From positions 371,680-435,679 of the forward strand of contig OZ251518.1 in the NCBI GenBank assembly GCA_965242965.1: a stretch of 64,000 nt of DNA, given 5' to 3'. The stretch is from Candidatus Poribacteria bacterium (lineage in GTDB: Bacteria > Poribacteria > WGA-4E > WGA-3G). Shown one piece after another: positions 849 through 51,813 of the stretch. The position numbers and the translations under genes are program-made. The notes under the pieces were generated by a model. It saw only the letters and a program-made list of their open reading frames with translations, made no database searches and was not told where the DNA came from. Within the stretch, counting starts at the first letter, position 1. Every line of letters starts with the position of its first letter.

Positions 849-3800
849 TCATGCAAATTTGATAAACGCCGCGCTGCAAATGACCTTGGGAGGGACACGG
901 ACGGACTGAATAGGTGGCACCTCGTCGCTTGCCAACGCCGACATATTGTAGCGGTGATAGAGGGTTTTCAACGCCGTTAACAACTCTTCGCCCGTGAGTT
1001 CGGCGCGATAGAGGCGGCTGATTTCGCGTTTGAGACGTTCTGTTAAGCGGCCGCGGAACGCTCGTTCAAGCGTCCCTATCGCGCGCTCTTCCGAGGTGCT
1101 GGCCAGCATCCTTAACTCCCGCAAAATGTATCGTTGCGCGCGGGACAACGTCTGTTTTGGAAAGGCGTTTCGCGTCCGACAGACTTCCGCTGCAGACGCT
1201 TTTTGGACTTGGGTGACGCGGGCGTTGTGATGGGCCGGAAGCGGTTTGCCTTGCAATTCGGCATCGCACTGGAGCAAGCGAAGGATTTCGGCAACATCGG
1301 TAGTCCGTTCAACGCCGTTTTCATCAAGCAGGACAAGCCGTCTTTGCTGTTCCTGTTCCCCGCGACAGCAGACGTAAGTGCCTTCTACTTCGGCGGGGAT
1401 GCCGGTGCGAATGCCATCTCTTAACTCGGCGATGCGCTGATATTCCGCTGGGTTTTGCCGTCTCAATTGCCGCAGCAACTCTTCCGCCTCACTTAATCCG
1501 AAGCCCGGTTCTTCGGTTTCTTCTTCCAAGAGGCTGAGTTGTTCGCCGTTCTGTTCATAAATGGCATACATCGCTTTTTCGTTGAGTTGCTCGGTGTTGT
1601 CAAGGATTGCCGCGTCTTCACCGATGGTATCGTGGATTTCCTGAATGCGGCATTGGAGTTTCTCGCGTAGCCCGAGGTTGCGTTCAATTCCCAATTCCGG
1701 CAGGAAATTGAACCCGTGGATTTCGTCAAATTGACTGCCAATCCTATCAATGCGGCCGAAGCGTTGGATTAAGCGCACCGGATTCCAGTGTAAATCGTAG
1801 TTGATGAGCATGCCGCAATCTTGCAGGTTCAATCCCTCGGCGAGGACATCTGTGGCGATGAGCGTCTCTATCTCGGTTTCATCCGACTTCAAGCGATGTT
1901 GATTGGCGTTCGGTGCGAACCGCTCGACGACGCGCCGCTTCCTATCGCTGCCGTGGCTATGGATAACCTCCGTATTCGCTGTGTGCAGGTTTCGGTAGAG
2001 ATAGTTTGCAGTATCAATATATTGTGTGAAGATGAGCCGTTTTTTGCCCTGCAGCGATGGCGATGCCAGCAACGCTTTCAACTTCTGAAGTTTCGCATCC
2101 TGCGCAGGCGTGATATGCTGAACCTTCTCGAAGATCTGGTTTAGAATACCGATGTCGTTCTGAATCGCCGCGCGAAGTTCAGGGACGTTGAAGTCACGGA
2201 TGTCGTATTGCGCGGAGGCTTCGCGGCGTGCTTCCAGAAACTGTGCAATGTCCCGTTCTTCCGGGCTGATGTCGGTTTCATCAGAAGTGCTCGCTTCATA
2301 GAGGATTTTCTGGGCATCGTCACCGGCTGGCACGATCCCATTTTCAAGCGCGCGGAGGAAATCGACGTGGACGTTATAGAACCGGGAGATAGTTGTCTTG
2401 AAGGCGTAAACACTGGATTCAAACCGTTTGAAGAGCAGAATACGCATGAGGCCCCGCAGGTTTCTACCCGCGCTCTGCAAATCCTGATACGGCGGGACAT
2501 TCTGACTCTCCTCCTTCACATAGTGCCAGAGGCCATACCGTGCATAAGTCAACTGCGCAGCGGTATCCGATTTACCGAGGTAATCGCGAATCTGTGCATA
2601 GAGCCCCTGATAGGTATCTTCAATGCTGTATTCAACCGTCTTGAGGGTGCGCTTCGGAAAGAACTGCTTGGTATCGCCGACGCGGACATAGGCGCGGCGT
2701 TCGCGGTTCAGGTAATCGGTGAATTGCGTTGCATCTACGGGTTCATCTGTCTCGGCATCGTAACCGTACCAACGCAAGATGTGGTTTCGCGTTCGGCGGA
2801 TGAGAATGTGTTGTAAAAGCGTCGGGAGGCTCCGTTCCCCGTTCTCAATCAAGCGGAAGTATTCGCGAAGATTTGGCGCGTCCACCGGCAACTGCGTTTC
2901 GTCGTTGAGATGGAAAAGTTTGAGTTGGTGGTAGATATCCCACGCGCTTTTATTGCGCGGTGTCGCTGTGAGGAAGCAGCACTTCTTATCGCCTGTTGTG
3001 AGGAATTCCTGCAAGACGCGGTAGCGTTGCGTAGTGGCATTTCGGAAGTTGTGGCTTTCGTCAACGAGGACAAAATCGCAGTGTCGATAGCGAATATCTT
3101 CAAAGAGCAATTCCCGCGCGTTTTCTTCCCCGCTACTTAAAAGCCCGGTGGAGAGGATTTGCGCGCCGAGGCGGTAGAGGACGTTATAGGATTCCCACAT
3201 GGACATAAGCGCGGGGGGACAGAGGATGAGCGGACGCGCCTGTTCAACTTGTTCAAAGTGCTTGACAATCGCCGAACCGATGTAACTTTTGCCGAGCCCG
3301 ACGACATCGGAGATGAAGACACCGCCGTATGCGTCAATAATCCGAATGGCTTGGGAAACGGCTACCTGCTGAAAATCCGCGAGTTGCGCTGTCAATTCGT
3401 CTGCCGGTGCGATGCGGCTCTCATCCGTTTCTACCCTATCTTTTACCAATTCGTAGAGCGTCTTCATGTAGATGTCATAAGGACGAACAAGCGCGAGGGC
3501 CCAGGAGGTTTGCATCTCGTCCATCAACGCCTTGTCAAAATCCTCTGCTTCGTCCCATAACGCGTCAAACCAGTCGCGGAGTTGCACCTGATTGGCGTTG
3601 CCGTGCACGACGACGTTCAATTCGGTGTTGCTGGTTAACCCTGCCAAGGTAAGATTCGATGAGCCGACGATGGAGATGCCGGATTCATATCCCGCGTTTT
3701 TGCCATAATCGAAAATATACGCCTTGGCGTGGAAACGCTCCTTCGTGTAAACCCTGACTTTCAGTTGTCCGCTAGCAATCATCTCCACGAGAGTTTTGAT

Positions 3801-4160
3801 GAGTTGCGCCGAGTCATCTGTCTGCGGCATGAATTCCATGCAGGCGCGGAGGTTTTGCGCTGTGTCACCGACGCGTGCCTTGCGTTCAACGCCGCGTGAA
3901 TAGCGGCGCGCCGACTGAATCTCGCCTACAGATGCCAATTGTCGATATCCTTCGGCGAGCTGCTCAATCGTCTCGCGTGTACTCGTATTCCCGATGAGGA
4001 GACGGAGCTCGGTGACGTTTTGCAGTGCTTCCGCGATGCCGGTAAAGCCGGTGAGGAAAAAATATCCGACAGCGAAGCGGGCGCGCTCTGTCTCCTCTAA
4101 CATGAGAGTGACGTTGTCGATGAGTTTTTCGGTGCGATTGTCGATAATGTCTTGTGGCAT
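849..4160 (-). CDS. PLD-family nuclease domain fused to an SNF2/SF2 helicase (1103 aa)
   Basis: N-terminal PLD HxK(x4)D(x6)GSxN motif (FHAKAYIFDYG...GSSNLT). Helicase motifs I VGLGKSY, II LVDESHNF, III LTATPRN, V/VI LIATDVLAEGLNL and QRFGRIDRIGS. The ATG lies 10 nt after the stop of the upstream repeat-protein gene, suggesting translational coupling. Confidence 0.8.
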   Translation of the reverse strand: MPQDIIDNRTEKLIDNVTLMLEETERARFAVGYFFLTGFTGIAEALQNVTELRLLIGNTSTRETIEQLAEGYRQLASVGEIQSARRYSRGVERKARVGDTAQNLRACMEFMPQTDDSAQLIKTLVEMIASGQLKVRVYTKERFHAKAYIFDYGKNAGYESGISIVGSSNLTLAGLTSNTELNVVVHGNANQVQLRDWFDALWDEAEDFDKALMDEMQTSWALALVRPYDIYMKTLYELVKDRVETDESRIAPADELTAQLADFQQVAVSQAIRIIDAYGGVFISDVVGLGKSYIGSAIVKHFEQVEQARPLILCPPALMSMWESYNVLYRLGAQILSTGLLSSGEENARELLFEDIRYRHCDFVLVDESHNFRNATTQRYRVLQEFLTTGDKKCCFLTATPRNKSAWDIYHQLKLFHLNDETQLPVDAPNLREYFRLIENGERSLPTLLQHILIRRTRNHILRWYGYDAETDEPVDATQFTDYLNRERRAYVRVGDTKQFFPKRTLKTVEYSIEDTYQGLYAQIRDYLGKSDTAAQLTYARYGLWHYVKEESQNVPPYQDLQSAGRNLRGLMRILLFKRFESSVYAFKTTISRFYNVHVDFLRALENGIVPAGDDAQKILYEASTSDETDISPEERDIAQFLEARREASAQYDIRDFNVPELRAAIQNDIGILNQIFEKVQHITPAQDAKLQKLKALLASPSLQGKKRLIFTQYIDTANYLYRNLHTANTEVIHSHGSDRKRRVVERFAPNANQHRLKSDETEIETLIATDVLAEGLNLQDCGMLINYDLHWNPVRLIQRFGRIDRIGSQFDEIHGFNFLPELGIERNLGLREKLQCRIQEIHDTIGEDAAILDNTEQLNEKAMYAIYEQNGEQLSLLEEETEEPGFGLSEAEELLRQLRRQNPAEYQRIAELRDGIRTGIPAEVEGTYVCCRGEQEQQRRLVLLDENGVERTTDVAEILRLLQCDAELQGKPLPAHHNARVTQVQKASAAEVCRTRNAFPKQTLSRAQRYILRELRMLASTSEERAIGTLERAFRGRLTERLKREISRLYRAELTGEELLTALKTLYHRYNMSALASDEVPPIQSVRVPPKVICSAAFIKFA

Positions 4161-6838: not shown

Positions 6839-6859
6839 GCGGTTTGCGCAAGGATTTTT

Positions 6860-7276: not shown

Positions 7277-7465
7277 TCAACTCCGCGCCTTCTTAAGCCT
7301 AGTTTCAACGAGATTGATAACCGCCTCGTAAACGCCATCACGCTCGCCTTGCGTCAATTCCAAGATGTCAAAGATGACGTTGTCAATCGCGATGCGCGCC
7401 GGTGAAGGCGATAAAACGTCCCATTCTTCGGATGCGAGGAGGGATGCATTTACCCCCCCCCTCAA
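7277..7465 (-). CDS. Probable displaced C-terminal segment of the adjacent methyltransferase (62-aa ORF in an alternate frame, beginning inside the G9 tract)
   Basis: Overlaps the MTase ORF by 83 nt in another frame. Its peptide (…DNVIFDILELTQGERDGVYEAVINLVETRLKKA) looks protein-like, whereas the MTase tail after the tract (KCIPPRIRRMGRFIAFTGAHRD) does not. Confidence 0.4.
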   Translation of the reverse strand: MRGGVNASLLASEEWDVLSPSPARIAIDNVIFDILELTQGERDGVYEAVINLVETRLKKARS

Positions 7466-10400
7466 AATTCATGTCTGTTAAGTTAGGGTTAACACATCGT
7501 AGCTCTCCCAAATCCGAGGTTTGGAGTTCTAACTCCCCATATCCTAGGTTTGAGCGACCGTTCACGTTCACCATCAACTGGAAGAAAGTAGAATTGAGGG
7601 AGAAACAGAGAGGTATCCTCAACTCAAGTGCGCATTGGAGTTCCATAAACTTGCCAGTCACATAACACCCCTCACTGGCATACAATGTTTTTGCCGTTGA
7701 ACGCATCCGGTGCGCAAAACTCATATACGGAGGCGGGCGTTTGCCCACATCATACCATCGCCGTCTAGATCGGATGCTCGGCCGCTGAGGCAGTTTCTGG
7801 CTTTCACCCGATTCAATGTATGCCAACGCAGCGGTGCCTCTTAAGGCTTCTCTCTCCTTTTGACACAGAAAGAGTTGATGTGGTGATTGTTCGGGGCGAA
7901 TCAACAGGCTCTCAGTGACTCTCCTGTCGTTGACAATCGGGTGTAAAAACTCTGGCTCAATATGCCACGCCGAAATCGTCTCCGCATCAAGGATGAAAAA
8001 CTGGTTTGCCCCGCTCATGATTCCTCGCCGAATCTGAGCGATGTCGCCGACACGGACGAGTTTATCCGAGCCTTTTTCTAGTAATGTCCAATAGATGTCG
8101 GGAGCGCGCAGATACTTCGCGCCCCATTTGTTTCCGGTATACTTCGTCTTTGCATCCATTCCGGCGGCTAAAAGTGCATCCTGCGAGAGAAGGTGAATTC
8201 GATATTCAGGCAGAGCATTCCGCTGGATTTCGGTTTCGATTTCGTAAAAGATGACAGGATCCAAAATAGCCTCAAACGGTTCGGTAAAGTTAACAAACCG
8301 CACAATGTCTTGCAAACCTGATGCGCTATCTCTAACCGGGGCGGAGATGAGACAAATAGCAGTGTTGATATTTACGGCTTTGAAGGAACGTCGTGCCGCG
8401 TTGTCCAAAACCAGTTTGAGATGACACCGCTTAAGGAGGAATTCCTGCAAATCTTTGCCGAAGTCCGCATCTAACCACGATCTGGATGTGATAGTGCAGA
8501 AGGTTCCTTTGGGATTTAGCAACGAGAGTCCGTGAAAGTAGAAGTAGACGTAGAGATCGCTGTTGCCATCTAGTTTATGCTTCACGGCAGACGCGGGGTT
8601 TTCCTTCGTATCCTTCTCCGGTTGATACCCGAAGAATGCAGGGAACGCCTGATAAACGGAACGCGCCAACTTGGCTTTATACGCCTTCGTGTTAGCGGGT
8701 GTAACCGCGTCTCGGGCTAGCGTCGGGTCTGTGAGTTTTTTCGTTGAAACGTAAGGCGGGTTTTCTATCACGATGTCAAAACCACCATACTGTTTGAAAA
8801 TCTCAACGAAGGCAATGTCCCACACGAAAGGTGGAACTGCATCTGACGTAAGGGCATGCTGGGCACGTTGGAGGTTGTTGAGATTCGCCTGTTGAAGTGC
8901 CAACTCCTGTTGCTTTTGCCGAGTTGCAAGATCTAATTGCGCTGCCTGGGGTTTCTCAATCCCGTCAAGCGTCAGTTGTTCAGCCGGATCTTCAAGCCAT
9001 TCCTGTAAACCTGCAATGCCTTCCAAAATTTGGCTTTCCTGCGACTGCAGTGTCTCCCGAAAGAGCAAGTTCTCGGCGCGTTGCACATCCGCTTTCTCAC
9101 GATATTTCCGCTCACGTTCGTTGTGATAAAACTTCAGTTTCTCTGTCTGGTGGAATACGATTTTGCGCGAGATGTCAGTCGGCACGCCGCTGCCCAACGC
9201 GCGCGTCTGCGCGAGGTTCATCCCACCGATGTCCTGCACCAGACTATCGCCGTGACGAATGTTAAACGAAAAATCAGGCAGCAAGGGCTCCTCGCGAATC
9301 TGCAGTTCCGCGGTGGAAATCTCTGCCTCAATGATGAGCGCGAGCCAGAGGCGTAACTCGGCAACTTTGCATGCCCACGGCATCACGTCTACGCCGTAGA
9401 GATTCTTGCCGATAATCGCCTTGCGGCGTTCAAACCTTGAGGTAACAGATGCACCGAGGTGCCGTGCGGCGCGTTCCCCCAGGTCATCGAGAATATGGAG
9501 CATGCCGACGAGAAACGAACCGCTGCCACACGCCGGATCCAACACCGTGAGACGGTTCAGATGCGTCGCGATATCACCCCACTGCGCGGCGAGGTGGGCA
9601 TCGGCATCTTCCTTCTCTGTTTCATCGAACGTAAAGAGTGCGGCGTAAAATTGATGCTTATGCGCCTCACCGATGTGATTTGCGAGGTTATCTACGAGCG
9701 CGAGACGGCACATCATATCTATCTCGATGCGCGGCGTGTAGAAGATGCCGGCATCGCCGCGTTCATCGGTTTCAGCGGAGACACTGACGAGACTCTCGTA
9801 GACTTTGCCGATCATCTCGGGGTCTACGGCGACTTCCTGTTCCAGCGGGGTATCCTCGGCGATGGTGAAGTTATATCCCTCGAAGAACTGGAAGATGTCG
9901 CGCCATAAATCATCGGGAATCGTGGTGGCATACTCGGTATCCCATTCGTTTTCTCGGAATAAGCCGCCGTTGAGATAGGGCGCGTGCTGAAGCGTTTCGC
10001 GGATGTTGTCAGGAAAGTAACGATATCCGCCGTGAAACTTCTGATTGAAAGCGGCGAAGAAGAGGACGTTGAGCCACTTTGCCACGAAGGTATCCGCTGG
10101 TTGCGTTGCGTTTTGATACGCCTGCCAAAACGTGTGCAGGAAATCGGTGTCGTTTCCGAGCCACCGTTTTCGCTGGATGAAATAGAGGAAGAGGCAGCGG
10201 CTGAGGAATTGTTGGGCTGCATCGTGCGCCCACTTTTTATCAGCGGTTTGCGTTTCCAACTCGGTTTGGAGGTTTCTGAAGACGCGCTGATAGTCGGCGA
10301 AAAACTGCGCTGTCACGGCATCGACATCGAAGGCGGCATCGTGCTGTTTGGTAATTTGCAGAGGTGTCAGCAGCTCTGGATTTGGGAAGAGGCTCTCCTG

Positions 10401-10886
10401 TTGGCCGTCAATGGCTATCGTCGCCAGATCGAGCATTGCGATACGTTCGGCGGCGGTGCGGAGTTTTTCATCGGGCGCGACAGTGATGCGCCGGAATCGG
10501 TGGCGTGCCTTGTGTTTCTTGCTTGCCTCGCGGACGAGTGTGACGTTGACGAAGTGCCAGTGGTCTTGCGCAATATTGCTAAAGATGTAGAGCGCGTGCG
10601 GGAAGCGCGTCTGCAAGTGCGCGATGACGCGGCGTTCGGCGGTCTTGCGGGGTGTTTCGGTATTGAGGCGCGCGTATATGATGTGAAAGTCGTTATCCCT
10701 ACCCCCGGCGGCAAAGCGTCGCGGTGCCTCGGCGAGGCAGTCGGCGATGGCTTCCGGGATGTTCTCAATCGGTTCATCGATGCGGTGATAATTGAGTTCT
10801 ACCCAAAAGAGTTCGCGCAGGGGTTCGATGCCGCGGAGGTTTTGTAGCAGAGTTAAGATGCGTTCGGTGTTTTCGGGTGTTGGCAT
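7383..10886 (-). CDS. Large gamma-class N6-adenine DNA methyltransferase, 1167 aa (Type IIG / BREX PglX / DISARM DrmMI-like). The true C-terminus is probably in the 7277..7465 frame.
   Basis: Motif X AGIFYTPR, motif I VLDPACGSGSFLV, motif IV IENPPY. A long N-terminal region precedes the MTase core. The C(9) run at 7453..7461 sits at the frame junction. Confidence 0.75.
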   Translation of the reverse strand: MPTPENTERILTLLQNLRGIEPLRELFWVELNYHRIDEPIENIPEAIADCLAEAPRRFAAGGRDNDFHIIYARLNTETPRKTAERRVIAHLQTRFPHALYIFSNIAQDHWHFVNVTLVREASKKHKARHRFRRITVAPDEKLRTAAERIAMLDLATIAIDGQQESLFPNPELLTPLQITKQHDAAFDVDAVTAQFFADYQRVFRNLQTELETQTADKKWAHDAAQQFLSRCLFLYFIQRKRWLGNDTDFLHTFWQAYQNATQPADTFVAKWLNVLFFAAFNQKFHGGYRYFPDNIRETLQHAPYLNGGLFRENEWDTEYATTIPDDLWRDIFQFFEGYNFTIAEDTPLEQEVAVDPEMIGKVYESLVSVSAETDERGDAGIFYTPRIEIDMMCRLALVDNLANHIGEAHKHQFYAALFTFDETEKEDADAHLAAQWGDIATHLNRLTVLDPACGSGSFLVGMLHILDDLGERAARHLGASVTSRFERRKAIIGKNLYGVDVMPWACKVAELRLWLALIIEAEISTAELQIREEPLLPDFSFNIRHGDSLVQDIGGMNLAQTRALGSGVPTDISRKIVFHQTEKLKFYHNERERKYREKADVQRAENLLFRETLQSQESQILEGIAGLQEWLEDPAEQLTLDGIEKPQAAQLDLATRQKQQELALQQANLNNLQRAQHALTSDAVPPFVWDIAFVEIFKQYGGFDIVIENPPYVSTKKLTDPTLARDAVTPANTKAYKAKLARSVYQAFPAFFGYQPEKDTKENPASAVKHKLDGNSDLYVYFYFHGLSLLNPKGTFCTITSRSWLDADFGKDLQEFLLKRCHLKLVLDNAARRSFKAVNINTAICLISAPVRDSASGLQDIVRFVNFTEPFEAILDPVIFYEIETEIQRNALPEYRIHLLSQDALLAAGMDAKTKYTGNKWGAKYLRAPDIYWTLLEKGSDKLVRVGDIAQIRRGIMSGANQFFILDAETISAWHIEPEFLHPIVNDRRVTESLLIRPEQSPHQLFLCQKEREALRGTAALAYIESGESQKLPQRPSIRSRRRWYDVGKRPPPYMSFAHRMRSTAKTLYASEGCYVTGKFMELQCALELRIPLCFSLNSTFFQLMVNVNGRSNLGYGELELQTSDLGELRCVNPNLTDMNFEGGGKCIPPRIRRMGRFIAFTGAHRD

Positions 10887-13834: not shown

Positions 13835-14563
13835 TTAATCAGTATGTGCGAATTGCGGTGCCGTTTCCAATTCCGATGCTTTGGTTTGCGTGTTGACATC
13901 TTCACATCCCGGTGGTTGTGCGCCGCGTATCCAGGGTTTCGGGCGTTTTTCCCATGGCAGTTTCGTGAAGCCGAGCCATCGGCAGAGGCGCGGGATATGT
14001 CCAGGGCGCGCAATACGGAGATGCTCAATCTCCGGCACGATGATAGGCACTACTTCCCAGCGTCCATCGGGATAGGCGGCATTTTCCCGGTGTCGCGCGA
14101 TGGGGTTAGGTTTCGGTATGTCGGTGTTTTTGAGCACCAAGGTTTCTATGTGTCGTTCGATGGCGAGTGCTGCTTTTGCATGGACTTCCATTGCGGTTTT
14201 GCCGTGTGCGGTGCAGCCGGGCAAATCTGGAACGCTGAGCCGGTAATGCCTCCGCCGTTTGCGGGTTATCAAGACCGGATAGTGGCGTAGTTCGGGCATC
14301 GTTATCGTCACGGTGTCCCACTGCAGTGCATCGGCATATCCCGGGTCGTTCTGATGGTAGGCGATGTCCTGGGGTTCAGGAATCGGATCATCTTCAAGCA
14401 TCATGCTTTCAAGATGTCCTTCGATTGCTTCCACGGCGCGCGTCAGCACCTGCTCTACGGTGTCTGCTGCAGTAATGCACCCTGGCAAATCGGGGACGAC
14501 GATGCCGTAGATGCTGCCCGGGTCTTTGAAAATCGCAACAGGATATTGCATAAAAGTTTTCAT
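13835..14563 (-). CDS. hicB: HicB-family antitoxin with two tandem HicB/UPF0150 domains (copy 1)
   Basis: YPVAIFKDPGSIYGIVVPDLPGC..A.TVEQVLTRAVEAIEGHLE repeated twice within the protein. Three paralogous copies in tandem. Confidence 0.75.
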   Translation of the reverse strand: MKTFMQYPVAIFKDPGSIYGIVVPDLPGCITAADTVEQVLTRAVEAIEGHLESMMLEDDPIPEPQDIAYHQNDPGYADALQWDTVTITMPELRHYPVLITRKRRRHYRLSVPDLPGCTAHGKTAMEVHAKAALAIERHIETLVLKNTDIPKPNPIARHRENAAYPDGRWEVVPIIVPEIEHLRIARPGHIPRLCRWLGFTKLPWEKRPKPWIRGAQPPGCEDVNTQTKASELETAPQFAHTD

Positions 14564-14632
14564 ATCTCCAACTCCGAGTTTCTAATTTCTTGTCTTAAGG
14601 TAGACAGTTTGGTAGAGACCTCATCAGTTGTT

Positions 14633-14863
14633 TTAGTTCCACTTCCATCCGGCTTGTTCATAGATACTTCGCACCGTCCCGATCGGTATGTCTTTGTTTG
14701 GATGTGGAACAGATACCGTGCCTGACTTGTCGGTGTGCCTGAATTGATGGTGAGATCCTTTGATGCGATGTAGGAACCATCCTTCGCTTTCAAGCTGCTT
14801 TATCATGCGTCGCGAGTCTCGGAGACGTTTCCAACTGGGCCGCTTCGATTTGCGATGTTTCAT
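14633..14863 (-). CDS. hicA: HicA-family mRNA interferase toxin (copy 1)
   Basis: LESEGWFLHRIKGSHHQFRHTDKSGTVSVPHPNKDIPIGTVRSI matches the HicA/YcfA signature. Confidence 0.8.
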   Translation of the reverse strand: MKHRKSKRPSWKRLRDSRRMIKQLESEGWFLHRIKGSHHQFRHTDKSGTVSVPHPNKDIPIGTVRSIYEQAGWKWN

Positions 14864-14875
14864 CTGTCCCCGGCG

Positions 14876-15589
14876 TTAAGCCTTGGCGTGTTCCGGTAGC
14901 ATCCCTTCGTTTTCGGCGGTGCTGTCGGTTTCCGGTGGTTGTGCGCCGCGTATCCAGGGTTTCGGGCGTTTCTCCCATGGCAGTTTCGTGAACCCGAGCC
15001 ATCGACAGAGGCGCGGGATACGGCCAGGGCGCGCAATACGGAGATGCTCGATCTCCGGCACGATGATAGGCACCACTTCCCAATGTCCATCGGGACATGC
15101 AGCATTTCCTCGGTGTTGCGCGATGGGGTTGGGTTTCGGTATGTCCCTATTTTTGAGTATTCGTGCTTCCATGTGTCGTTCAATGGCGAGTGCTGCTTTT
15201 GCATGGACTTCCATTGCGGTTTTGCCACGCGCGGTACAGTCGGGCAAATCTGGGACGCTGAGCCGATAGTGCTTCCGCCGTTTGCGGGTTATCAAGACAG
15301 GATAGTGGCGCAGTTCTGGAAACGCTACCGTTACCTCCTCCCACTGCCCCCCAGCATATTCTGGATATGCCGGATTGTTCTGATGGTAGGCGATGTCCTT
15401 AGGTTCGGGAATCGCATCTCCATCAATTAACATGCCGCCGAGATGACATTTAATCGCTTCCACGGCCTGGGTCAGAACGTCCTCGACTGTATCGCCCCAG
15501 GTATAACACCCAGGTAAGTCTGGAACAATTACGCCGTAGTCGCTATCCGGGTCTTTGTGGATGACAATCGGATACCTAAAGATTTTCAT
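14876..15589 (-). CDS. hicB: HicB-family antitoxin, tandem-domain (copy 2)
   Basis: Paralog of 13835..14563. Confidence 0.75.
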   Translation of the reverse strand: MKIFRYPIVIHKDPDSDYGVIVPDLPGCYTWGDTVEDVLTQAVEAIKCHLGGMLIDGDAIPEPKDIAYHQNNPAYPEYAGGQWEEVTVAFPELRHYPVLITRKRRKHYRLSVPDLPDCTARGKTAMEVHAKAALAIERHMEARILKNRDIPKPNPIAQHRGNAACPDGHWEVVPIIVPEIEHLRIARPGRIPRLCRWLGFTKLPWEKRPKPWIRGAQPPETDSTAENEGMLPEHAKA

Positions 15590-15626
15590 AATTCTAACTC
15601 CTGTTCCTACTTGGCATTTAATGGCT

Positions 15627-15857
15627 TTAGTTCCACTCCCAGCCGGTCTGCCGATAGATATTCCGCAATGTGCTTATTGGGATATCTTTGTTTGGATGCG
15701 GCACCGAAGCTTTGCCCGGTTTGTCGGGATGTCTGAATTGATAGTGATCTCCGTTGGTTTGGACCCAGAACCATCCTTCGCTTTTAAGTTGTTTTATCAT
15801 GCGCCTTGAGTCGCGGAGGCGTTTCCAACTGGGCCGCTTCGATTTGCGATGTTTCAT
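15627..15857 (-). CDS. hicA: HicA-family toxin (copy 2; motif NGDHYQF instead of KGSHHQF)
   Basis: First 25 aa identical to copy 1, the rest divergent. Confidence 0.7.
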   Translation of the reverse strand: MKHRKSKRPSWKRLRDSRRMIKQLKSEGWFWVQTNGDHYQFRHPDKPGKASVPHPNKDIPISTLRNIYRQTGWEWN

Positions 15858-15869
15858 CTGTCCCCGGCG

Positions 15870-16568
15870 TTAAGCCTTGACGTGTTCCGGTAGCATCGCT
15901 TCGTTTTCGGCGGTGCTGTCGGTTTCCGGTGGTTGTGCGCCGCGTATCCAGGGTTTTGGGCGTTTTTCCCATGGCAGTTTCGTGAACCCGAGCCATCGGC
16001 AGAGGCGCGGGATACGCCCGGGACGCGCGATACGGAGATGCTCAATCTCCGGCACGATGATAGGCACCACTTCCCAATGTCCATCGGAATAGGCGGGATT
16101 TCCCCGGTGTTGCGCGATGGGTTTGGGTTTCGGTATGTCGGTGTTTTTGAGCACCAAGGCTTCCATGTGTCGTTCAATGGCGAGTGCTGCTTTTGCATGG
16201 ACTTCCGTTGCGGTTTTGCCGTGCGCGGTGCAGCCGGGCAAGTCCGGGACGCTGAGTTGATAGTGCTTCCGCCGTTTGCGGGTTATCAAGACCGGATAGT
16301 GGCGCAGTTCGGGTAAGGTTATGGTAACCCAATCCCACCGTTGGAAGTCGGCATAGTGCGGATTGTTTTGATGAGCGGCGATGTCCTGGGGTTCAGGAAT
16401 CAGGTCTCCATCAATCAACATGCCGCCGAGATGACATTTGATGGCTTCCACGGCTTGGATAAGCACTTCCTCAACGGTATCCGCTGCGGTAATGCATCCG
16501 GGTAAGTCCGGAACGAGGATGCAGTAATCACTATCCGGGTCTTTGTCAATCACGACAGGGTAACGCAT
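15870..16568 (-). CDS. hicB: HicB-family antitoxin, tandem-domain (copy 3)
   Basis: Paralog. RBS GGGAGGA upstream. Confidence 0.75.
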   Translation of the reverse strand: MRYPVVIDKDPDSDYCILVPDLPGCITAADTVEEVLIQAVEAIKCHLGGMLIDGDLIPEPQDIAAHQNNPHYADFQRWDWVTITLPELRHYPVLITRKRRKHYQLSVPDLPGCTAHGKTATEVHAKAALAIERHMEALVLKNTDIPKPKPIAQHRGNPAYSDGHWEVVPIIVPEIEHLRIARPGRIPRLCRWLGFTKLPWEKRPKPWIRGAQPPETDSTAENEAMLPEHVKA

Positions 16569-23355: not shown

Positions 23356-25059
23356 ATGCACGGCTCAATGATGAACTATCCATTGAATATCGCGCGGATT
23401 TTGGAACATGCACGCCGCATCCACGGCGATAAACGGGTGACGACATACAGTTCCGATGTTCTGCAGAGTTACACTTACGCTGAGTTTTATCGCCGCGTTC
23501 AACGGCTGGCGAACGTCCTCATCCGGCGCGGTATACGGCCGGGGGATAGGGTGGCGACCTATGCCTTGAATACATATCAGCACTTGGAGCTCTATTATGC
23601 GATTCCGTGCATCGGCGCGGTGCTTCACCCGCTCAACGTCCGCCTCACTGCCGCCCAACTCGCCGAAATCGTGCGAGAGGCAGAGGATAAACTTGTCTTT
23701 GTCGATGACAGGTTTGCCTCGCAGTTTGAAGAACTGCAGGAAGAAATCGGATGCCTACCGAGAATCTTTTGCTCCTCTGAGTCGGACGATTATGAGCCAC
23801 TTATCGCCGCCGCAGAAGAAACGGAAACGTGGGATATTCAGGACGAAAACTGGGCGATGGGACTTTGCTATACGAGTGGAACGAGTGGTGAACCACGCGG
23901 TGTCCTCTACACGCACCGCTCCATGTTCCTTCACACGATGGCGGTGAATCAGGCAGATGTGTTCGGCTTAACGGAGGCGGATGTCGTGCTCCCGCTCGTG
24001 CCGATGTTTCACGCGATGGCGTGGGGATTGCCGTATGCTTCGCTGTTTGTAGGCGCGGATTTGGTGCTACCCGGCGATGCTAAACCTGCGCAGATTGCTG
24101 CACTCATCGCTGAAACGGGGGTAACCGTCGCCGCTGGTGTTCCCACGGTCTGGGGAAAAGTGTATCCCGAATTACAGAAGCGCGCGCGAGATATTGCTTC
24201 ACTGCGGCTCATCATCGTCGGTGGGGAAGCGATGCCGATGACGCTCATCAAGGCTTATGAAAAGGAGCTCGGTGTTGAGGTGCGCCACGCCTGGGGGATG
24301 ACGGAGATGTCGCCGACCGGCACGTTATCGACACTCCGCCGCGCACATCAGAACCTGTCTGATACTGAAAAATGGCAGGTGAAGGCACTGCAAGGCAGCC
24401 CGGTGCCGGGGGTTGAGATTCGGCTGGTAGAAGAGAAACGGAGTTCGGATGAACTTACGGGAATGCATCGAGACCGGGAGGTCTCGCCTACTGGGCTGGA
24501 GCATTATGATGACGACGCACAGATCAAAATGCATCGAGACCAGGAGGTCTCGCCTACGGTAGAAGAGAAATGTAGTTCGGATGCACTGCCTTGGGACGGA
24601 GAAACGGTAGGCGAGCTGCAGGTGAGGAGTCCTTGGACAGCGAATAGTTATTACAAAACGGAGCCGATGCCAGAACATTTCACGGCGGACGGATGGTTGC
24701 GCACCGGCGATATCGCGACTATCAACCCGGAAGGCTATGTGCAGATTGTGGATAGGGCGAAGGCACTCATTCGGAGCGGCGGCGAGTCTATCTCAAGCAT
24801 CGCATTGGAGACGGCGTTGATGGCGCACCCACAGGTGCTTGATGCCGCTGTCATCGGTATCCCTGACGAGCAGTGGGGTGAACGTCCGGTCGCCGTTGTC
24901 GTCTGTGAATCTGCGACGGCTGCGCAACTCAAGGTATGCCTCGCAACCCAATTCCCGAAGTTTTGGATACCAGACCGGTTTATCTTTGTTGATGAGCTCC
25001 CGAAAACCAGCGTTGGAAAATCTGATAAGCGAGAGATTCGGAGACGAGTTTTATCCTAA
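23356..25059 (+). CDS. AMP-dependent synthetase/ligase (long-chain fatty-acid--CoA ligase-like). Carries an in-frame 132-bp palindromic-repeat insertion at 24457..24588.
   Basis: AMP-binding motifs (YTSGTSGEPRGV, GEL.VR.PW, TGD.....EGY, final K). The insertion encodes MHRDREVSPTG twice. Confidence 0.75.
   Translation: MHGSMMNYPLNIARILEHARRIHGDKRVTTYSSDVLQSYTYAEFYRRVQRLANVLIRRGIRPGDRVATYALNTYQHLELYYAIPCIGAVLHPLNVRLTAAQLAEIVREAEDKLVFVDDRFASQFEELQEEIGCLPRIFCSSESDDYEPLIAAAEETETWDIQDENWAMGLCYTSGTSGEPRGVLYTHRSMFLHTMAVNQADVFGLTEADVVLPLVPMFHAMAWGLPYASLFVGADLVLPGDAKPAQIAALIAETGVTVAAGVPTVWGKVYPELQKRARDIASLRLIIVGGEAMPMTLIKAYEKELGVEVRHAWGMTEMSPTGTLSTLRRAHQNLSDTEKWQVKALQGSPVPGVEIRLVEEKRSSDELTGMHRDREVSPTGLEHYDDDAQIKMHRDQEVSPTVEEKCSSDALPWDGETVGELQVRSPWTANSYYKTEPMPEHFTADGWLRTGDIATINPEGYVQIVDRAKALIRSGGESISSIALETALMAHPQVLDAAVIGIPDEQWGERPVAVVVCESATAAQLKVCLATQFPKFWIPDRFIFVDELPKTSVGKSDKREIRRRVLS
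24466..24560. repeat. Two family-3 palindromes (ATGCATCGAGACCrGGAGGTCTCGCCTAC) inside the CoA-ligase ORF, flanked by a 30-bp direct duplication (24425..24455 and 24558..24588)
   Basis: Direct reading. The reading frame is preserved (132 bp). Confidence 0.8.
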
Positions 25060-28704: not shown

Positions 28705-29570
28705 TAATTCCGTAGGGCGAGGGCCTGTCCGAGTTAAATCGCGTCTTAGTCCGTAGGGCGAGGGCCTGTCCCTCGCCAGGCCGGGGGATATGAATACGTG
28801 CCTTAGTCCGTAGGGCGAGGGCCTGTCCCTCGCCATGCCGGAATATGAATGTTCCTCGCCGTGCGGGAGCGTTAAGCGGCGGTTTTCATGATGCGAGAGA
28901 TCGCGAGGGACAGGCCCTCGCGCTACGGGAACATCGAGCCGTTGGTGGAACGCGAGGGACAGGCCCTCGCGCTACGGGCCGGGAGGCGGTTATTTGAGGG
29001 TGTTTCATATTTCGATGCGTTCGGTAGGAGAGACCTCCCGGTCTCGATTTCTTCCGGTAGGAGAGACCTCCTGGTCTCAATGTTCCCTCTTTAGGTCCTT
29101 TAGGTCCTTAATGTCTATAGAAATACGTGTCATTACGTTGTCAAGGTCCTTTAGGTCCTTAATAGAGAAACAACGCAGCGTGTCAAAATTTATTAAGGAC
29201 CTAAAGGACCTTAAATCTTTTCGTATCGCGGCTGCTATAGACATGCAGGACCTAAAGGACCTGAAGAGGCGTTATTTTCATCGTAGCGCGAGGGCCTGTC
29301 CCTCGAGATCTGTCCCGGTAGGAGAGACCTCCTGGTCTCGATGTTCTTCTGTAGTTTGTGATCGCCTGATCACAAACAGGTCAGGATCAGGCGATCTTGA
29401 CTTACAGGGCCTGACGCGAGAGCGATCGCGAGGGACAGGCCCTCGCCCTACGGTAACATCGGGCTGTTTGCAGATCGCGAGGGACAGGCCCTCGCGCTAC
29501 GGTGAAAGCGCGCCGTTGGTGGAACGCGAGGGACAGGCCCTCGCGCTACGGGCCGGGAGGAGGTTGTTTC
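28705..29570. repeat. Large REP/MITE cluster including copy 2 of the ~190-bp composite MITE-like element (29090..29280)
   Basis: Direct reading. Confidence 0.85.
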
Positions 29571-29573
29571 GTA

Positions 29574-30518
29574 TCAATACCCCTTCTCCTTATCAATAAC
29601 GCTGAGCAGGGGTTTGCCGACTAGGAGGCGTTCTAGATTATCGCAGAAAAGCCCCACCGTCCGGTCCAGCCGAATTGGAGAGCCACCGGCGACATGCGGC
29701 GTGATAATCACGTTCGGCATATCCCACAGCGGGCTATCCATTGACAGCGGTTCTTCTGGCGTGACATCTAACCCCGCGCCGCCGATGCTCCCGTTATTAA
29801 GCGCGCGGAGAAGTGATGGACCGTCGACAATCTTGCCTCGCGTGACGTTAACGAGCAGTGCATGCGATTGCATCGCTTGGAACGCCGCGTCGTCAAACAT
29901 CCCGTGTGTTTCTGGTGTCAACGGCGCGCAAATGGCGACGACATCCGATTGCGCGAGCAGTTCATGGAACCGCTCCATCTGCCACACTTCATGGACGAAG
30001 GAAGGGGCATCGACTGTTTCCGGATCTACGGCGATGACGCGCATATCAAACCCTTGTGCGCGGCGTGCCACGTCAATCCCTGTGCCGCCGAGTCCGACGA
30101 TGCCGAGGGTGCGTTCGCTCAGTTCCCATGTTGCGAGTCTGATGGACATGCGGTTGTCCCATGTCCGTTCGCGCACGGAACGTCCGATGCCGCGGAGTAA
30201 GCCGAGGATGAGTGCCCACGCCTGGTCTGCCAGATGCGGTCCGACGAACCCTTTCGCGCTTGTTAAGATGACATGGCTCTGGACAAATTCGGGAAACAGG
30301 AGTCCGTCAACGCCTGCGGAAAGCACTTGCACCCACTTAAGTTGCTCGGCATTCTCAAACAGTGTGCGGTTGAAGCCGCCGAAGACTACCTCGGTATCGC
30401 CGATTTCGCGAAGTGCCGCTGCAGCATTCTCTGCCTCAATGACATGCAATTGTTCGGATACCGCCTCTATCTGCTGTCGGTGTTCCGAGGTTATCTCGGT
30501 GTTAATCAAAATCTTCAT
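29574..30518 (-). CDS. D-isomer-specific 2-hydroxyacid dehydrogenase
   Basis: GIVGLGGTG NAD-binding motif followed by acidic D, catalytic R/E/H region. Confidence 0.8.
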   Translation of the reverse strand: MKILINTEITSEHRQQIEAVSEQLHVIEAENAAAALREIGDTEVVFGGFNRTLFENAEQLKWVQVLSAGVDGLLFPEFVQSHVILTSAKGFVGPHLADQAWALILGLLRGIGRSVRERTWDNRMSIRLATWELSERTLGIVGLGGTGIDVARRAQGFDMRVIAVDPETVDAPSFVHEVWQMERFHELLAQSDVVAICAPLTPETHGMFDDAAFQAMQSHALLVNVTRGKIVDGPSLLRALNNGSIGGAGLDVTPEEPLSMDSPLWDMPNVIITPHVAGGSPIRLDRTVGLFCDNLERLLVGKPLLSVIDKEKGY

Positions 30519-35807: not shown

Positions 35808-35859
35808 CCTGAGGGTGTTTCATAACTCCGTTTCGGTATTTATCCCTCTTGGGGAGCAG

Positions 35860-36370
35860 GCGACTCCCGCGCCTTCTTGGTAGGAGAGACCTCCCGGTCT
35901 CGATGCAATAGGGCGGCGCGCCTACCGGAGCCGCGGCGGCAGAAGGTCCCCCTTCATCGTAGGGCGAGGGCCTGTCCCTCGCCATCGCTCGCGCAACCCA
36001 ACGATCGCGGGGGACAGGCCCCCGCGCTACGGTATCCGGAACGGCTCCATTTACCGTAGGGCGAGGGCCTGTCCCTCGCCATGCTGCGATCGCGGAGAAA
36101 CCCGCTCGCCTGCGCATATGGAAATTTCCGAGGGCCCCCGCGCGACAGAGCCTGAAACGCTCGCGGGGGACAGGCCCCCGCGCTACGGTAGCCGGAACGG
36201 CTCCATTTACCGTAGGACGAGGGCCCTCGCATGCCACACGCGCATGCGAGAGGGTTTCCCTCGCCATGCGTTTGGCTGTCAAACCTCATCACCTCTGTAG
36301 GTCAGGATCGCCTGATCCTGACCCGTTCGGGTGCAGGCGCACCCGAACTACAGAGGTGGGCCCGATGTTT
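35860..36370. repeat. REP cluster (families 3, 1, 2)
   Basis: Direct reading. Confidence 0.85.
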
Positions 36371-38485: not shown

Positions 38486-38494
38486 GCCGTGCCT

Positions 38495-48660: not shown

Positions 48661-51600
48661 ATGACAACACTTAACCTGAAACCAACTCACAAAGCGATAA
48701 CCGCCTATTATGCCGCACTCAACAGGTATCAACAGCACGGGGTAACCCACGAAACCGCCGTGCGCGCCGCCTTTCAAGCACTCCTCGAAGCCTGCACGCG
48801 ACAACTTGACTGGACGCTGATTTGTGAACAGACACTACGCCTCCCCGATAGAAATCCTATCCGCCTCGATGGCGCGCTGCTCGACGAACATAGTTTGCCC
48901 CGCGGCACCTGGGAGGCAAAAGGCGTTAAAGGAGCTCTCCGCGCCGAAATCAATAAGAAATTCGACGCAGGCTATCCCCAGGACAACATCCTCTTCCAAA
49001 CACCGGAACGCGCCATTCTCTATCAAAACGGACGCGAAGTGATGGACGCAGACATCACCGCACCGGAAACGCTTGTCACGGTGTTGCAGACGTTCTTTGC
49101 CTACGAGCGCGCGAACGCCGCCGAATGGCGCGCCGCCGTCGCACGCTTCAAAGAACTTGTCCCCGAACTCGGGGCGGAGGCGGCGAACCTTATCCAAACG
49201 CAGCACGAAACAAACGCGCAATTCCGCGCCGATTTCACCGCGTTTCACGAACTCTGCAAAACCGCCATCAACCCGAATCTCTCGGCGGCGGCTGTCCAAG
49301 AGATGCTCGTCCAACATCTTCTCACCGAACGGATGTTCCGCACTGTCTTCGAGGATCCGGATTTCGCCCACCGCAATATCATCGCCCGCGAAATTGAAAA
49401 AGTCCTCAAGGGAACACTGGCGAACTTCCTCAACCGCGGCCAACTGCTCCAAAAACTCACGCCGTTCTATCGCGAAATCGAACGCGAGGCAGCTACACTC
49501 GTCGATTTCTCGCAGAAACAGCACTTCCTCAACACCGTTTACGAGCAGTTCTTCCAAGGCTTCTCCGTGAAGCAGGCGGATACGCACGGCATCGTTTACA
49601 CCCCGCAGCCTATCGTCGATTTTATGGCGAACAGCGTCCAGCATATCCTCCAAACCGAATTCGACCACGCGCTGGCAGATGAAGGCGTTCACATCATCGA
49701 TGCGTTCGTCGGCACCGGCAACTTCATCGTCCGACTCATGCGCGACATCCCCAAGACGAAACTGGAGGCGAAATACCGAAACGAACTCTGGTGCAACGAA
49801 GTGCTGTTATTGCCTTATTACATCGCCACGCTCAACATCGAGCACGAATTCTACGCCGCCACCGGCACCTATCTGCCGTTTGAAGGCATCTCCCTCGTGG
49901 ATACGTTCGAGTTAGCGGAAGACCGGCAGTTGTCGCTCTTAACCGCTGAAAACACGGCGCGTGTGGCGAAGCAGCAAGCCTCGCCGATGTTCGTCGTCAT
50001 CGGAAATCCGCCCTATAACGCCGGGCAAATCAACGAAAACGATAACAACAAAAATCGGAATTATCCGACGCTGGAGGCGCGCGTGCGAGAAACCTATGCG
50101 AAAGACTCCACCGCAACGCTCAAAAATTCGCTCTATGACACTTACGTCAAGGCACTTCGTTGGGCTTCCGATAGGATTGGCAAACAGGGGATCGTCGCGC
50201 TCGTCACGAATAACAGTTTTCTTAGCGGCACCTCGTTTGATGGCATGCGGAAACACCTCGCTGAAGACTTTGATGCCATCTATGTCGTCGATTTGGGCGG
50301 CAATGCGCGGCGTGATAAACTTGTCGCTGATGCAAGCGTTTTTGGTATCCGCGTCGGGGTGAGTATTAATTTTTTCGTGAAAAACCCTTCCCGGCGATCG
50401 CGGGGGACAGGCCCCCGCGCTACGGTGCCTTCCGGTCTCGATGGGATCGCGGGGGACAGGCCCCCGCGCTACGGTAACGGGGAAAATTCCGCGCGCATCT
50501 TCTATTACCGCACCGATGACGCGTGGAACAAACACCAGAAATTCGATTTCTTGACGCAAACTGAACACGTTGGGAATGTGGACTGGCAAACGCTAGAACC
50601 CGATGCACGAAATACCTGGCTCACCGAAGGACTCAACCCTGAATTTTTGACGTTCATGCCGATAGGGAGCAAAACGGCAAAACGGGAAAAAAAGGAGCCC
50701 GCCGGGGTGATATTCCACCAGTTCAGCAACGGTTTGAAAACAAACCGGGATGCATGGGCTTACAACTTCAACCGCGATGCGCTCGCTGAAAACATGCAGC
50801 GCATGATAGGTGCCTATAACGCGCAGGTCTCCCAGTGGCGCGATAGGGACGACAACGCGGAGATAAGTGTTGACGATTTTGTCGATGCCGACTTGCGGAA
50901 AATCAAATGGAGTGGCGATTTGAAAACCGCTCTCAAAAAAGGGGTTTTCGCGGCGTTTTCCAATGAAAAATTGCGAACGTCTCTCTACCGTCCTTTCACC
51001 CGTTCTTTTCTGTTCTTCGACCGGCTCATGAATAACGGCACCTTTCTTCAGCCCTATATCTTCCCTACGCCGGAGACAGAAAAGGAAAATCTCGTTCTCT
51101 CTGCCGCGGGAACTGGGCATCGGACGGGATTTGGCTGTCTCGTCTCAAACGTCATTCCCAATGTAGATCTTGCCTATGAAAAAGGGCAGTGCTTCCCGTT
51201 CTACTTTTACGATGAAGATGGCACTAACCGCCGAGAAAACATCACCGATTGGGCATTGGAAAACTTCCGCAAGCACTATGGCGACGATACCATCACGAAA
51301 TGGAACATTTTCCACTACACCTACGGTATCTTGCATCATCCTGCGTATCGCGAACGTTACGCCGCTGATCTCAAGCGCGATTTACCGCATATCCCCTACG
51401 CCGACGATTTCTGGGCATTTGCAAACGCCGGCGCACGGTTAGCGGAACTTCATGTCAACTACGAGGCGCAGCCGGAGTATCCGCTCACGTTTGTCGAAGA
51501 TGCGACGCGGCAGTTGGATTTCCGCGTGGAAAAAATGAGGTTGTCCAAGGACAAGACCTCGCTTATCTATAACGAGTTTCTGACGTTGGAGGGGATTCCT

Positions 51601-51813
51601 GCGGCGGTGTTTTCGTATCGCTTGGGTCAGTATTCGGCGTTGGAGTGGGTGGTGAAGCAGTATCGTGTGAAGGCGGATGCGCGGAGTGGTATTGTGAACG
51701 ATCCGAACGATGCGTCGAATCCGCGTTATATCGTGGAGCTCATCGGTTCGGTGGTTACGGTGAGTTTGGAGACGTGTAAGATTGTTGGGGGTTTGCCATC
51801 GTTTCGTTCGTGA
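48661..51813 (+). CDS. Type IIG/IIL (MmeI-like) restriction-modification enzyme: N-terminal PD-ExK nuclease motif + gamma-class N6-adenine MTase + C-terminal TRD. Has an in-frame repeat insertion at 50395..50470.
   Basis: D76...E85-A-K87 (LLDEH...TWEAKG), comparable to MmeI D70/E80/K82. Motif X VYTPQ, motif I IIDAFVGTGNF, motif IV GNPPYNAGQ. Confidence 0.65.
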   Translation: MTTLNLKPTHKAITAYYAALNRYQQHGVTHETAVRAAFQALLEACTRQLDWTLICEQTLRLPDRNPIRLDGALLDEHSLPRGTWEAKGVKGALRAEINKKFDAGYPQDNILFQTPERAILYQNGREVMDADITAPETLVTVLQTFFAYERANAAEWRAAVARFKELVPELGAEAANLIQTQHETNAQFRADFTAFHELCKTAINPNLSAAAVQEMLVQHLLTERMFRTVFEDPDFAHRNIIAREIEKVLKGTLANFLNRGQLLQKLTPFYREIEREAATLVDFSQKQHFLNTVYEQFFQGFSVKQADTHGIVYTPQPIVDFMANSVQHILQTEFDHALADEGVHIIDAFVGTGNFIVRLMRDIPKTKLEAKYRNELWCNEVLLLPYYIATLNIEHEFYAATGTYLPFEGISLVDTFELAEDRQLSLLTAENTARVAKQQASPMFVVIGNPPYNAGQINENDNNKNRNYPTLEARVRETYAKDSTATLKNSLYDTYVKALRWASDRIGKQGIVALVTNNSFLSGTSFDGMRKHLAEDFDAIYVVDLGGNARRDKLVADASVFGIRVGVSINFFVKNPSRRSRGTGPRATVPSGLDGIAGDRPPRYGNGENSARIFYYRTDDAWNKHQKFDFLTQTEHVGNVDWQTLEPDARNTWLTEGLNPEFLTFMPIGSKTAKREKKEPAGVIFHQFSNGLKTNRDAWAYNFNRDALAENMQRMIGAYNAQVSQWRDRDDNAEISVDDFVDADLRKIKWSGDLKTALKKGVFAAFSNEKLRTSLYRPFTRSFLFFDRLMNNGTFLQPYIFPTPETEKENLVLSAAGTGHRTGFGCLVSNVIPNVDLAYEKGQCFPFYFYDEDGTNRRENITDWALENFRKHYGDDTITKWNIFHYTYGILHHPAYRERYAADLKRDLPHIPYADDFWAFANAGARLAELHVNYEAQPEYPLTFVEDATRQLDFRVEKMRLSKDKTSLIYNEFLTLEGIPAAVFSYRLGQYSALEWVVKQYRVKADARSGIVNDPNDASNPRYIVELIGSVVTVSLETCKIVGGLPSFRS
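50395..50470. repeat. Two family-1 hairpins (CGATCGCGGGGGACAGGCCCCCGCGCTACGG) inserted in-frame in the RM gene
   Basis: They encode ...RSRGTGPRATVPSGLDGIAGDRPPRYG... Confidence 0.8.

Follow-up and report, generated by a model that had tools for sequence, protein, structure and literature searches.

Palindromic repeats inserted in frame in functional genes reportedly first came to light in Rickettsia, as the Rickettsia palindromic elements (RPEs); their hosts are obligate intracellular alphaproteobacteria, and RPE-1, at about 100-150 bp, is longer than the units considered below. For the repetitive extragenic palindromes (REPs) of the GTAG and CGTC types, an intergenic location is the rule, a minority being found within genes that code for known proteins (Di Nocera et al. 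2013, BMC Genomics 14:522; PMC3733652). Over half of these intragenic REPs are dimers or groups encoding 20-30 aa, clusters encode 43-82 aa, and the insertions, sited in loops or linkers, are thought to be neutral (PMC3733652). The same survey finds REPtrons absent from some REP-bearing species and gives CGTC as the tag of RPEs (PMC3733652). REPs also occur as inverted doublets, the REPINs (Bertels & Rainey 2011, PMC3116915). The REP-associated tyrosine transposases (RAYTs) cut single-stranded DNA at a CT beside a GTAG-tagged hairpin; transposition of IS200/IS605, to which RAYT chemistry is related, produces no target duplication, and the dissemination of REPs is regarded as unresolved (Corneloup et al. 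2021, PMC8266576). Small non-autonomous elements of another kind, the MITEs (short for miniature inverted-repeat transposable elements), likewise occur in frame, as illustrated by cyanobacterial Nezha and enterobacterial small mobile sequences (review PMC10969869). Here we describe a 132-nt insert made of GTAG-type REP units in the long-chain-fatty-acid-CoA ligase gene (23356..25059, plus strand) of a 64,000-nt stretch of Candidatus Poribacteria DNA (contig OZ251518.1, positions 371,680 to 435,679; hereafter the window). We consider it highly probable that a piece of a tandem REP array of one family (family 3 below) was copied once into the ligase gene of the ancestor of a narrow Poribacteria clade, with duplication of 30 bp of the target, and that it is selfish or neutral DNA lodged in a tolerant loop.

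The host gene is an intact open reading frame (ORF) of 567 aa. It has the AMP-binding N-terminal domain and the C-terminal domain of the long-chain-fatty-acid-CoA ligases of the ANL superfamily, as judged from its Pfam profile matches (PF00501, E 8e-72; PF13193, E 3e-20), from its score against NCBIfam NF004837 (545 bits for a cut-off of 476) and from its closest solved structure, the Thermus ligase LC-FACS (1ULT, E 5e-116; further relatives 6IHK and 6IJB). The palindromes, direct repeats and unbroken frame reported in the preliminary description are all present, at coordinates within 1 nt of those first given. From left to right, the insertion begins after a copy of the duplicated target (24426..24455, plus strand, GGTAGAAGAGAAACGGAGTTCGGATGAACT, encoding VEEKRSSDEL), with a junction filler, TACGGGAATG (24456..24465, plus strand); in it, TACGGGAA matches the ...CTACGGGAA tail that usually belongs to the adjacent REP in intergenic clusters, and a comparable gcgctacgggaacatcGAGACC is present at window positions 741, 6751 and 20163. 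REP unit 1 follows on the minus strand (24466..24491; minus-strand sequence GTAGGCGAGACCTCCCGGTCTCGATG; stem 24469-24475/24480-24486, loop GGGA), then a linker proper to the window allele, TGGGCTGGAGCATTATGATGACGACGCACAGATCAAA (24492..24528, plus strand, encoding GLEHYDDDAQIK), then REP unit 2, oriented as unit 1 (24529..24557, minus strand; stem 24535-24541/24546-24552, loop AGGA), and finally the right copy of the target (24558..24587, plus strand, GGTAGAAGAGAAATGTAGTTCGGATGCACT, encoding VEEKCSSDAL). The two target copies are identical at 27 of 30 positions, i.e. differ by 3 mismatches, and their starts are 132 nt apart. Delimited as 30-nt repeats, AATGCATCGAGACC(G/A)GGAGGTCTCGCCTAC, the two units occupy 24462-24491 and 24528-24557 and differ by a single nucleotide; in each, a 4-nt loop separates the arms of a 7-bp stem (CGAGACC/GGTCTCG), and the tail is CCTAC, which is GTAGG on the minus strand. 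They encode HRDREVSPT and MHRDQEVSPT, i.e. the two peptides of MHRD(R/Q)EVSPT type first noticed. RNA folding predicts the 7-bp hairpin for unit 1. The insert ends are TACGGGAATGCATC... and ...GGTCTCGCCTAC, and the internal REP stems are its only inverted repeats.

The DNA of seven orthologous ligase alleles was compared, as were the 120 closest homologues of the protein, the nearest named ones being from metagenome-assembled genomes (MAGs) of Candidatus Poribacteria. The ligase-ADH gene order is kept in all seven alleles, and so are the DUF6785, DUF433 and PhyH genes where the contig reaches them. Five alleles are filled and two, L001 and L002, are empty: the latter have exactly 132 nt fewer, contain the 30-mer once and encode 523 aa, their insertion site reading CGG(C/T)TGGTAGAAGAGAAAC(A/G)TAGTTCGGATG(A/C)ACTGCC. 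This single copy identifies the flanking repeat as a genuine 30-bp target duplication. Likewise, among the closest homologues, P0006 and P0007 have 523 aa (567 - 44) and a single VEEKxSSDxL, which bears out the earlier count of 44 codons added in frame. The proteins P0002-P0005 are variants with two or three HRDxExSPT units, while the orthologues at 82% identity or less are all devoid of the segment; outside the narrow clade, it was not found in orthologues, as the preliminary description had required of a repeat insertion. Since the insert is found in five independent assemblies, two of them with contigs of 5.66 Mb (the source of the window) and 5.74 Mb (ERZ26050812 ctg28420), an assembly artefact is ruled out.

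Every filled allele has the same organization (^ marks the junctions), ...GGATGAACT^TACGGGAATGCATC-(REP array)-CCTAC^GG(G/T/C)AGAAGAGAAAC..., and is flanked on both sides by the 30-mer. At the left junction, ACT^TACGGGAATGCATC, the five filled alleles are nearly the same, L006 being three bases off (ACTCACGGGTGTGCATC). Because this junction is essentially common to all of them, it implies a single insertion event, and the sequences thus establish a single origin of the insert. What lies between the junctions is far less constant. The inserts are 132, 138, 99, 102 and 102 nt long, all multiples of 3; the arrays contain two or three units with periods of 33, 36 or 66 nt, and both the linker and individual residues vary. 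The linker has 6-9 nt in the sister alleles (GGGAGAAGG in L003, L005 and L006, GGTATT in L004), and where the 9-nt GGGAGAAGG stands in sisters the window allele has a unique 39-nt linker of which no other copy was found in the window, in the fetched loci or in the viral_contigs and metagenome_contigs collections. In the other filled alleles, the right copy of the 30-mer differs from the left one by 2-8 mismatches. Substitutions within the units are mostly non-synonymous (three out of four in unit 1), and some disrupt the palindrome.

The history of the insert was traced on a neighbour-joining tree of 517 ungapped codons from which the insert was masked. The empty L002 is basal and falls outside a clade with 100% bootstrap that holds all filled alleles. 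The empty L001 is nested within this clade and pairs with the filled L005 (90% bootstrap); it is nearest to L005 across 2.8 kb, and the two share four derived substitutions within 27 nt of the insertion site. Because of this nesting and these shared derived sites, the empty state of L001 is most simply explained as a secondary and precise loss. Recombination between the 30-bp direct repeats could have restored the original sequence exactly in that lineage. The insertion is older than the radiation of a clade with dS of about 0.15-0.2; it was described at first as recent, which holds in a relative sense only.

The units belong to one of the dispersed REP families of the window, designated family 3. 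Matches to the full 29-mer (at most three mismatches) number 11 in 64 kb for an expectation of 0, and its 16-nt core, GAGACCNGGAGGTCTC, has 22 copies against 0.08 expected; the palindromes that entered the AMP-dependent ligase gene are dispersed repeats. The consensus of the 22 aligned copies is (G/A)CATC-GAGACC-NGG-AGGTCTC-(T/G)CCTAC-(C/G)GG. Family-3 copies end in ...GGTCTC(G/T)CCTAC, i.e. GTAGG(C/A)GAGACC on the opposite strand, and thus have the unpaired GTAG, as well as the short palindromic stem-loop (about 26-29 nt), of GTAG-type REPs. They are often preceded by the ...CTACGGGAA tail of another REP, and neighbouring units are always in the same orientation, direct tandems being typical in the window. 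A k-mer census attributed about 10% of the window to palindromes of at least five REP families, arranged in mosaic intergenic clusters, and all the palindrome families of the window end in CTAC(G/C)G, that is GTAG on the other strand. A generic detector of GTAG next to a GC-rich hairpin found 139 units in the 64 kb versus 6-12 in shuffled sequence. These GTAG-hairpins are dispersed, clustered and mostly extragenic, only two clusters lying deep inside verified genes. Their density is lineage-specific: 1.66 per kb in the window, 0.83 in the close clade, 0.07-0.26 at other Poribacteria loci and 0.04 at non-Poribacteria loci.

Set against the known systems, the ligase insert has the stem-loop, tag and copy-number features of GTAG-type REPs and lacks those of REPINs, of MITEs, of RPE sequences and of CRISPR arrays. 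With its two units, 44 aa and location at the tip of a hairpin, it fits the description of intragenic REPs in PMC3733652. It differs by the host, Candidatus Poribacteria being outside that survey, by a much higher REP density, by the nature of the gene, which is that of a metabolic enzyme instead of a DNA-repair gene, and by the availability of filled and empty alleles with a 30-bp target duplication; PMC3733652 makes no mention of a duplication. We found no paper describing REPs in Poribacteria. The likeness to RPEs is that of selfish palindromes lying in frame in genes that are still functional and adding tens of residues at surface positions, function being deduced here from the intact ORF and the dN/dS values; the units are nonetheless tagged by GTAG instead of CGTC and the sequences are unrelated. 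As in the REPIN/RAYT systems (PMC3116915; Nunvar 2010; PMC8266576), we are dealing with high-copy GTAG REPs presumed to be non-autonomous mobile DNA, but the two ligase units are direct, both having GTAG on the minus strand. Between its genes, the window has mosaics of several REP types joined by short linkers, which resemble the clusters of bacterial interspersed mosaic elements (BIMEs) of E. coli; BIMEs, however, alternate in orientation and are extragenic, whereas family 3 forms same-orientation tandems, one of which is inside a coding sequence. Lastly, MITEs are also small non-autonomous repeats that can lie within ORFs, add a peptide and be flanked by direct repeats. Unlike them, the ligase insert lacks terminal inverted repeats (15-30 bp in MITEs), and their target duplications have a fixed length of 2-10 bp, whereas we observe 30 bp here and 6 nt at another gain; at about 30 other indels, none was seen.

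The insert corresponds to residues 362-405, after the strand ...GVEIRLVEEK and before ...LPWDGETVGELQVRSPW. The alignments to 1ULT and to 6IHK are both interrupted exactly there, query residues 361 and 411 facing residues 372 and 376 of the 1ULT chain. The core motifs, whose A5, A6 and A8 names we take, like the assignment of the hairpin to the beta-barrel subdomain, to be established knowledge of ANL enzymes, are found at residues 313-320 (A5, WGMTEMSP), 419-427 (A6, GELQVRSPW) and 466-477 (A8 hinge, DRAKALIRSGGE). The insert is thus located at the tip of a beta-hairpin between A5 and A6, within the N-terminal domain. This contradicts the initial placement between the A-domain subdomains. Nor is the insert near the A8 hinge, which is about 60 residues further on. 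The length of the hairpin tip differs by a few residues among orthologues. The encoded peptide (expected translation, for example, MHRDREVSPTGLEHYDDDAQIK) has a grand average of hydropathy (GRAVY) of -1.47 (remaining protein, -0.10), and charged residues make up 48% of it (remaining protein, 25%); it probably forms a hydrophilic and disordered surface loop. In an AlphaFold2 (AF2) model built from a 116-sequence alignment, the insert is coil with a predicted local distance difference test (pLDDT) score below 50, between strands 354-358 and 419-424. This agrees with the surface loop proposed earlier, but the model is poor overall (mean pLDDT 55), the available homologues all having 62% identity or more, and it is given little weight. 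That the hairpin tip is exposed and tolerant of length change is suggested by homology, by the composition of the peptide and by the different lengths found in nature, together with the weak model. The pairwise dN/dS of the ligase is 0.08-0.18 for all orthologue pairs, including filled versus filled: the gene bearing the insert is still under purifying selection, and for that reason the insert is considered as tolerated.

As to the insertion step, our preference, a tentative one, goes to a template switch during replication, or to the repair of a break, copying from a REP array and returning imprecisely 30 nt upstream of the exit point, over cut-and-paste by a RAYT. Two properties of the junctions favour copying from an existing array. 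On the left, the insert opens with TACGGGAA, which is how the REP ahead of family-3 units usually ends in intergenic clusters. On the right, the junction of L003-L005, CCTACGGGAGAAG^AGAAAC, does not depart from the inter-unit linker CCTACGGGAGAAGGG before the crossover and also resembles the target CTGGTAGAAGAG; this microhomology could have helped the return to the target. The donor array would then have carried ...CTACGGGAATGCATCGAGACC...CCTACGGGAGAAGGGCATC. The duplication itself is exceptional. In an offset self-comparison its offset-repeat score is 21, for a 99th percentile of 7 in the null distribution, and among about 30 indels that distinguish the window from the orthologous loci, the ligase insert is alone in having a long duplication of host sequence; the one other high score corresponds to a change in REP copy number. 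Three features would have kept the enzyme working after the event: the REP unit is open in five of the six reading frames, the added length is a multiple of 3, and the hairpin tip is variable in length. From then on the array would have undergone ordinary REP turnover, with gain and loss of units, replacement of the linker in the window allele and loss of the whole insert in L001. By extension, and as speculation, template switching (copy-choice) from existing arrays, and not RAYT cut-and-paste, would be the way in which REP arrays spread through this hyper-REP-rich Poribacteria lineage, with hypervariable translated surface loops in enzymes as a by-product, including one in a restriction-modification-type methyltransferase.

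Mobilization by a RAYT would involve a Y1 HUH transposase encoded elsewhere, which would excise a single strand containing a REP and, at a replication fork, insert this strand in the ligase gene. The units do have the GTAG tag recognized by RAYTs (PMC8266576, PMC3733652), the last host bases before the left junction are CT, the dinucleotide they cleave (PMC8266576), and REP strand orientation is mildly biased relative to GC skew (62:35), though this bias is uninterpretable. Yet the CT is on the strand where the REP is in the inactive, inverted orientation, REPINs are inverted where our units are direct (PMC3116915), and single-strand transposition of the IS200/IS605 type does not account for 30 duplicated bp. 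None of the 30 window ORFs scanned with Pfam contains PF01797, the RAYT domain, but in a genome of about 5.7 Mb this carries little weight. The only other gain that could be reconstructed, a 42-nt family-2 unit in a methyltransferase gene (window versus L090), has a 6-nt flanking repeat, CCTTCC; such a variation in duplication length, if real, counts against an enzyme with a fixed stagger, although this second gain may equally have arisen by tandem duplication and deletion. We regard the involvement of a RAYT as unlikely. The odds are much longer against a two-step scenario, in which the hairpin tip would first have been duplicated in tandem over 30 bp (10 codons) and the REP array would have been added later, exactly at the duplication junction: the tip tolerates length change and, as the methyltransferase loop illustrates, it is common for REP arrays to grow where repeats or hot spots already exist, but a duplication without REP units was seen in none of the 120 closest homologues, two events at the same nucleotide would be needed, and the right junction blends seamlessly with the REP linker.

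Another possibility is that selection maintains the REP-encoded peptide after its recruitment to a function at the ligase surface, for example as an interaction or regulatory loop. Its presence in frame in five diverged alleles, the strong constraint on the host gene and the occurrence of extra residues in the same hairpin of P0010 would agree with this adaptive view. Close alleles nevertheless differ in unit number, period and linker, the substitutions in unit 1 are predominantly non-synonymous and partly destructive of the palindrome, the peptide is composed like a disordered charged linker, intergenic DNA is filled with the same repeats, and L001 lacks the insert while its gene remains intact and constrained. 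We therefore deem recruitment improbable. Of the initial proposal that the insert is tolerated or selected, the first term stands and the second does not: being hydrophilic, variable and once lost, the insert shows no sign of selection for its presence, and it would be selfish or neutral DNA translated into a surface loop rather than a functional module. The last alternative, a miniature CRISPR-like array (two 30-nt repeats around a 36-nt spacer) or another structured RNA within the gene, is suggested by the repeat and spacer sizes of the window allele and by the predicted folding of the mRNA of the insert into two stable hairpins (z = -2.0). It is effectively refuted. There are only two repeats, the sister alleles have a mere 6-9 nt between units, the so-called repeat is a dispersed REP found singly across the window, and the spacer is unmatched in the viral and metagenome collections; no cas gene was present among the 30 scanned ORFs and no Rfam match anywhere in the window.

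Several points weigh against the scenario of a single copying event followed by neutral persistence. Searches of the accessible sequence turned up no donor array that has the same linker, CCTACGGGAGAAGGGCATCGAGACC being confined to the orthologous ligase alleles and the pattern CTACGGGAANNCATCGAGACC being present in no locus. The microhomologies at the right junction are short and purine-rich and could be due to chance. At flanking sites -96, +86 and +88, L001 matches L002 and not the filled alleles; this implies that some recombination or lineage sorting also entered into the history of gain and loss. Retention of the insert over a dS of about 0.15-0.2 would also be compatible with a weak benefit. 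Given the mean pLDDT of the model, the case for solvent exposure of the loop is built chiefly on homology, on the make-up of the peptide and on the natural variation in length, and translation of the insert is predicted only.

In-frame REP arrays are not rare in the Poribacteria lineage of the window. A second and independent pair, from family 2 (GTAGCGCGGGGGCCTGTCCCCCGCG twice; 50395..50476, minus strand), is present in the ORF of a Type-ISP-like N6-adenine methyltransferase (48661..51813, plus strand). There too, the alignment, in this case to 7LO5, breaks at the insert (query residues 579 and 610 versus chain residues 582 and 587), and across homologues the loop contains from none or one to six or more REP-encoded peptides, derived from at least four families. 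This methyltransferase family is multi-copy in each genome, with lengths of 1020-1194 aa, and its loop is a REP hot spot. In another Poribacteria lineage, the ligase P0085 (GCA_026702755.1; L089 4430-4575) has three in-frame 48-nt GTAG-REP units (GTAGGTGCGGTTTCTAACCGCAC) in its C-terminal domain, which encode LTPVGAVSNRTDADIA three times; similar arrays occur in P0029 and P0045, and a unit of the P0085 REP family is intergenic in another MAG (L013 916-936). The 76%-identical P0010 (L088, about 4110-4145) has 12 extra residues in the same ligase hairpin as the window allele, encoded by GGGTTGCAAACCGCGCCTACGG, a weak palindrome with a CCTACGG tail; these may represent an independent and decayed REP. 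Finally, L006 (3425-3514; P0005) has a further 90-nt in-frame insert elsewhere in the ligase, found in this allele only and endowed with a GTAG hairpin; within it lie GTAGGCATTGAC/GTCAATGAC, together with CAAAAACGT/ACGTTTTTG as an outer inverted repeat.

Other observations concern the REP clusters and the remaining genes of the window. A 16-mer, TGAGGGTGTTTCATAA, marks the edges of REP clusters at about 13 sites, mostly on one strand (e.g. 22777, 30598, 31401, 35810, 42854, 44976 and 59376); it sometimes directly follows the stop codon of a plus-strand gene, sometimes lies upstream of a minus-strand gene, and possibly forms the end of some composite element. REP clusters also generate long spurious N-terminal extensions, as well as entire ORFs that are spurious (e.g. 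28892-29599 and 35617-36285), and could thereby mislead annotation; at 38458-39100, a 621-aa ORF of a mandelate-racemase/enolase-family gene starts within a cluster, its Pfam domains beginning at about residue 224. The region 849-10886 resembles a defence island, with a PLD-nuclease/SNF2-helicase gene (849..4160, minus strand) and an Eco57I/MmeI-type methyltransferase gene (7383..10886, minus strand), the Eco57I profile match of the latter being stretched (338 residues for a 171-position model). The ORFs lying between these two genes, at 4364-5935, are full of long tandem repeats. The minus strand at 13835-16568 holds three paralogous genes in tandem, every one of which codes for a double HicB-like antitoxin domain (two PF15919 stretches per gene).

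The source genome, that of a sponge-symbiont-like Candidatus Poribacteria, is littered with short selfish palindromic REPs, and taken alone, the insertion in the ligase gene is an expected consequence of this very high load. Intragenic REPs were already known; what is unusual is the long flanking duplication, which a clean series of filled and empty alleles accompanies. For protein evolution, it is another clean example of a core that tolerates 33-46 extra residues at a hairpin tip. For REPs, whose mode of spread is an open question, the state before insertion can rarely be reconstructed in intergenic DNA; here, a conserved coding sequence and sister strains without the insert give access to exact junctions, to a single dated origin, to the turnover of the array and to its precise loss. 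Because a 30-bp duplication is not what is expected of a Y1 transposase, this lineage, with about 1.7 GTAG-hairpins per kb and closed genomes of several strains, could serve as a natural test bed for the mechanisms of REP insertion.

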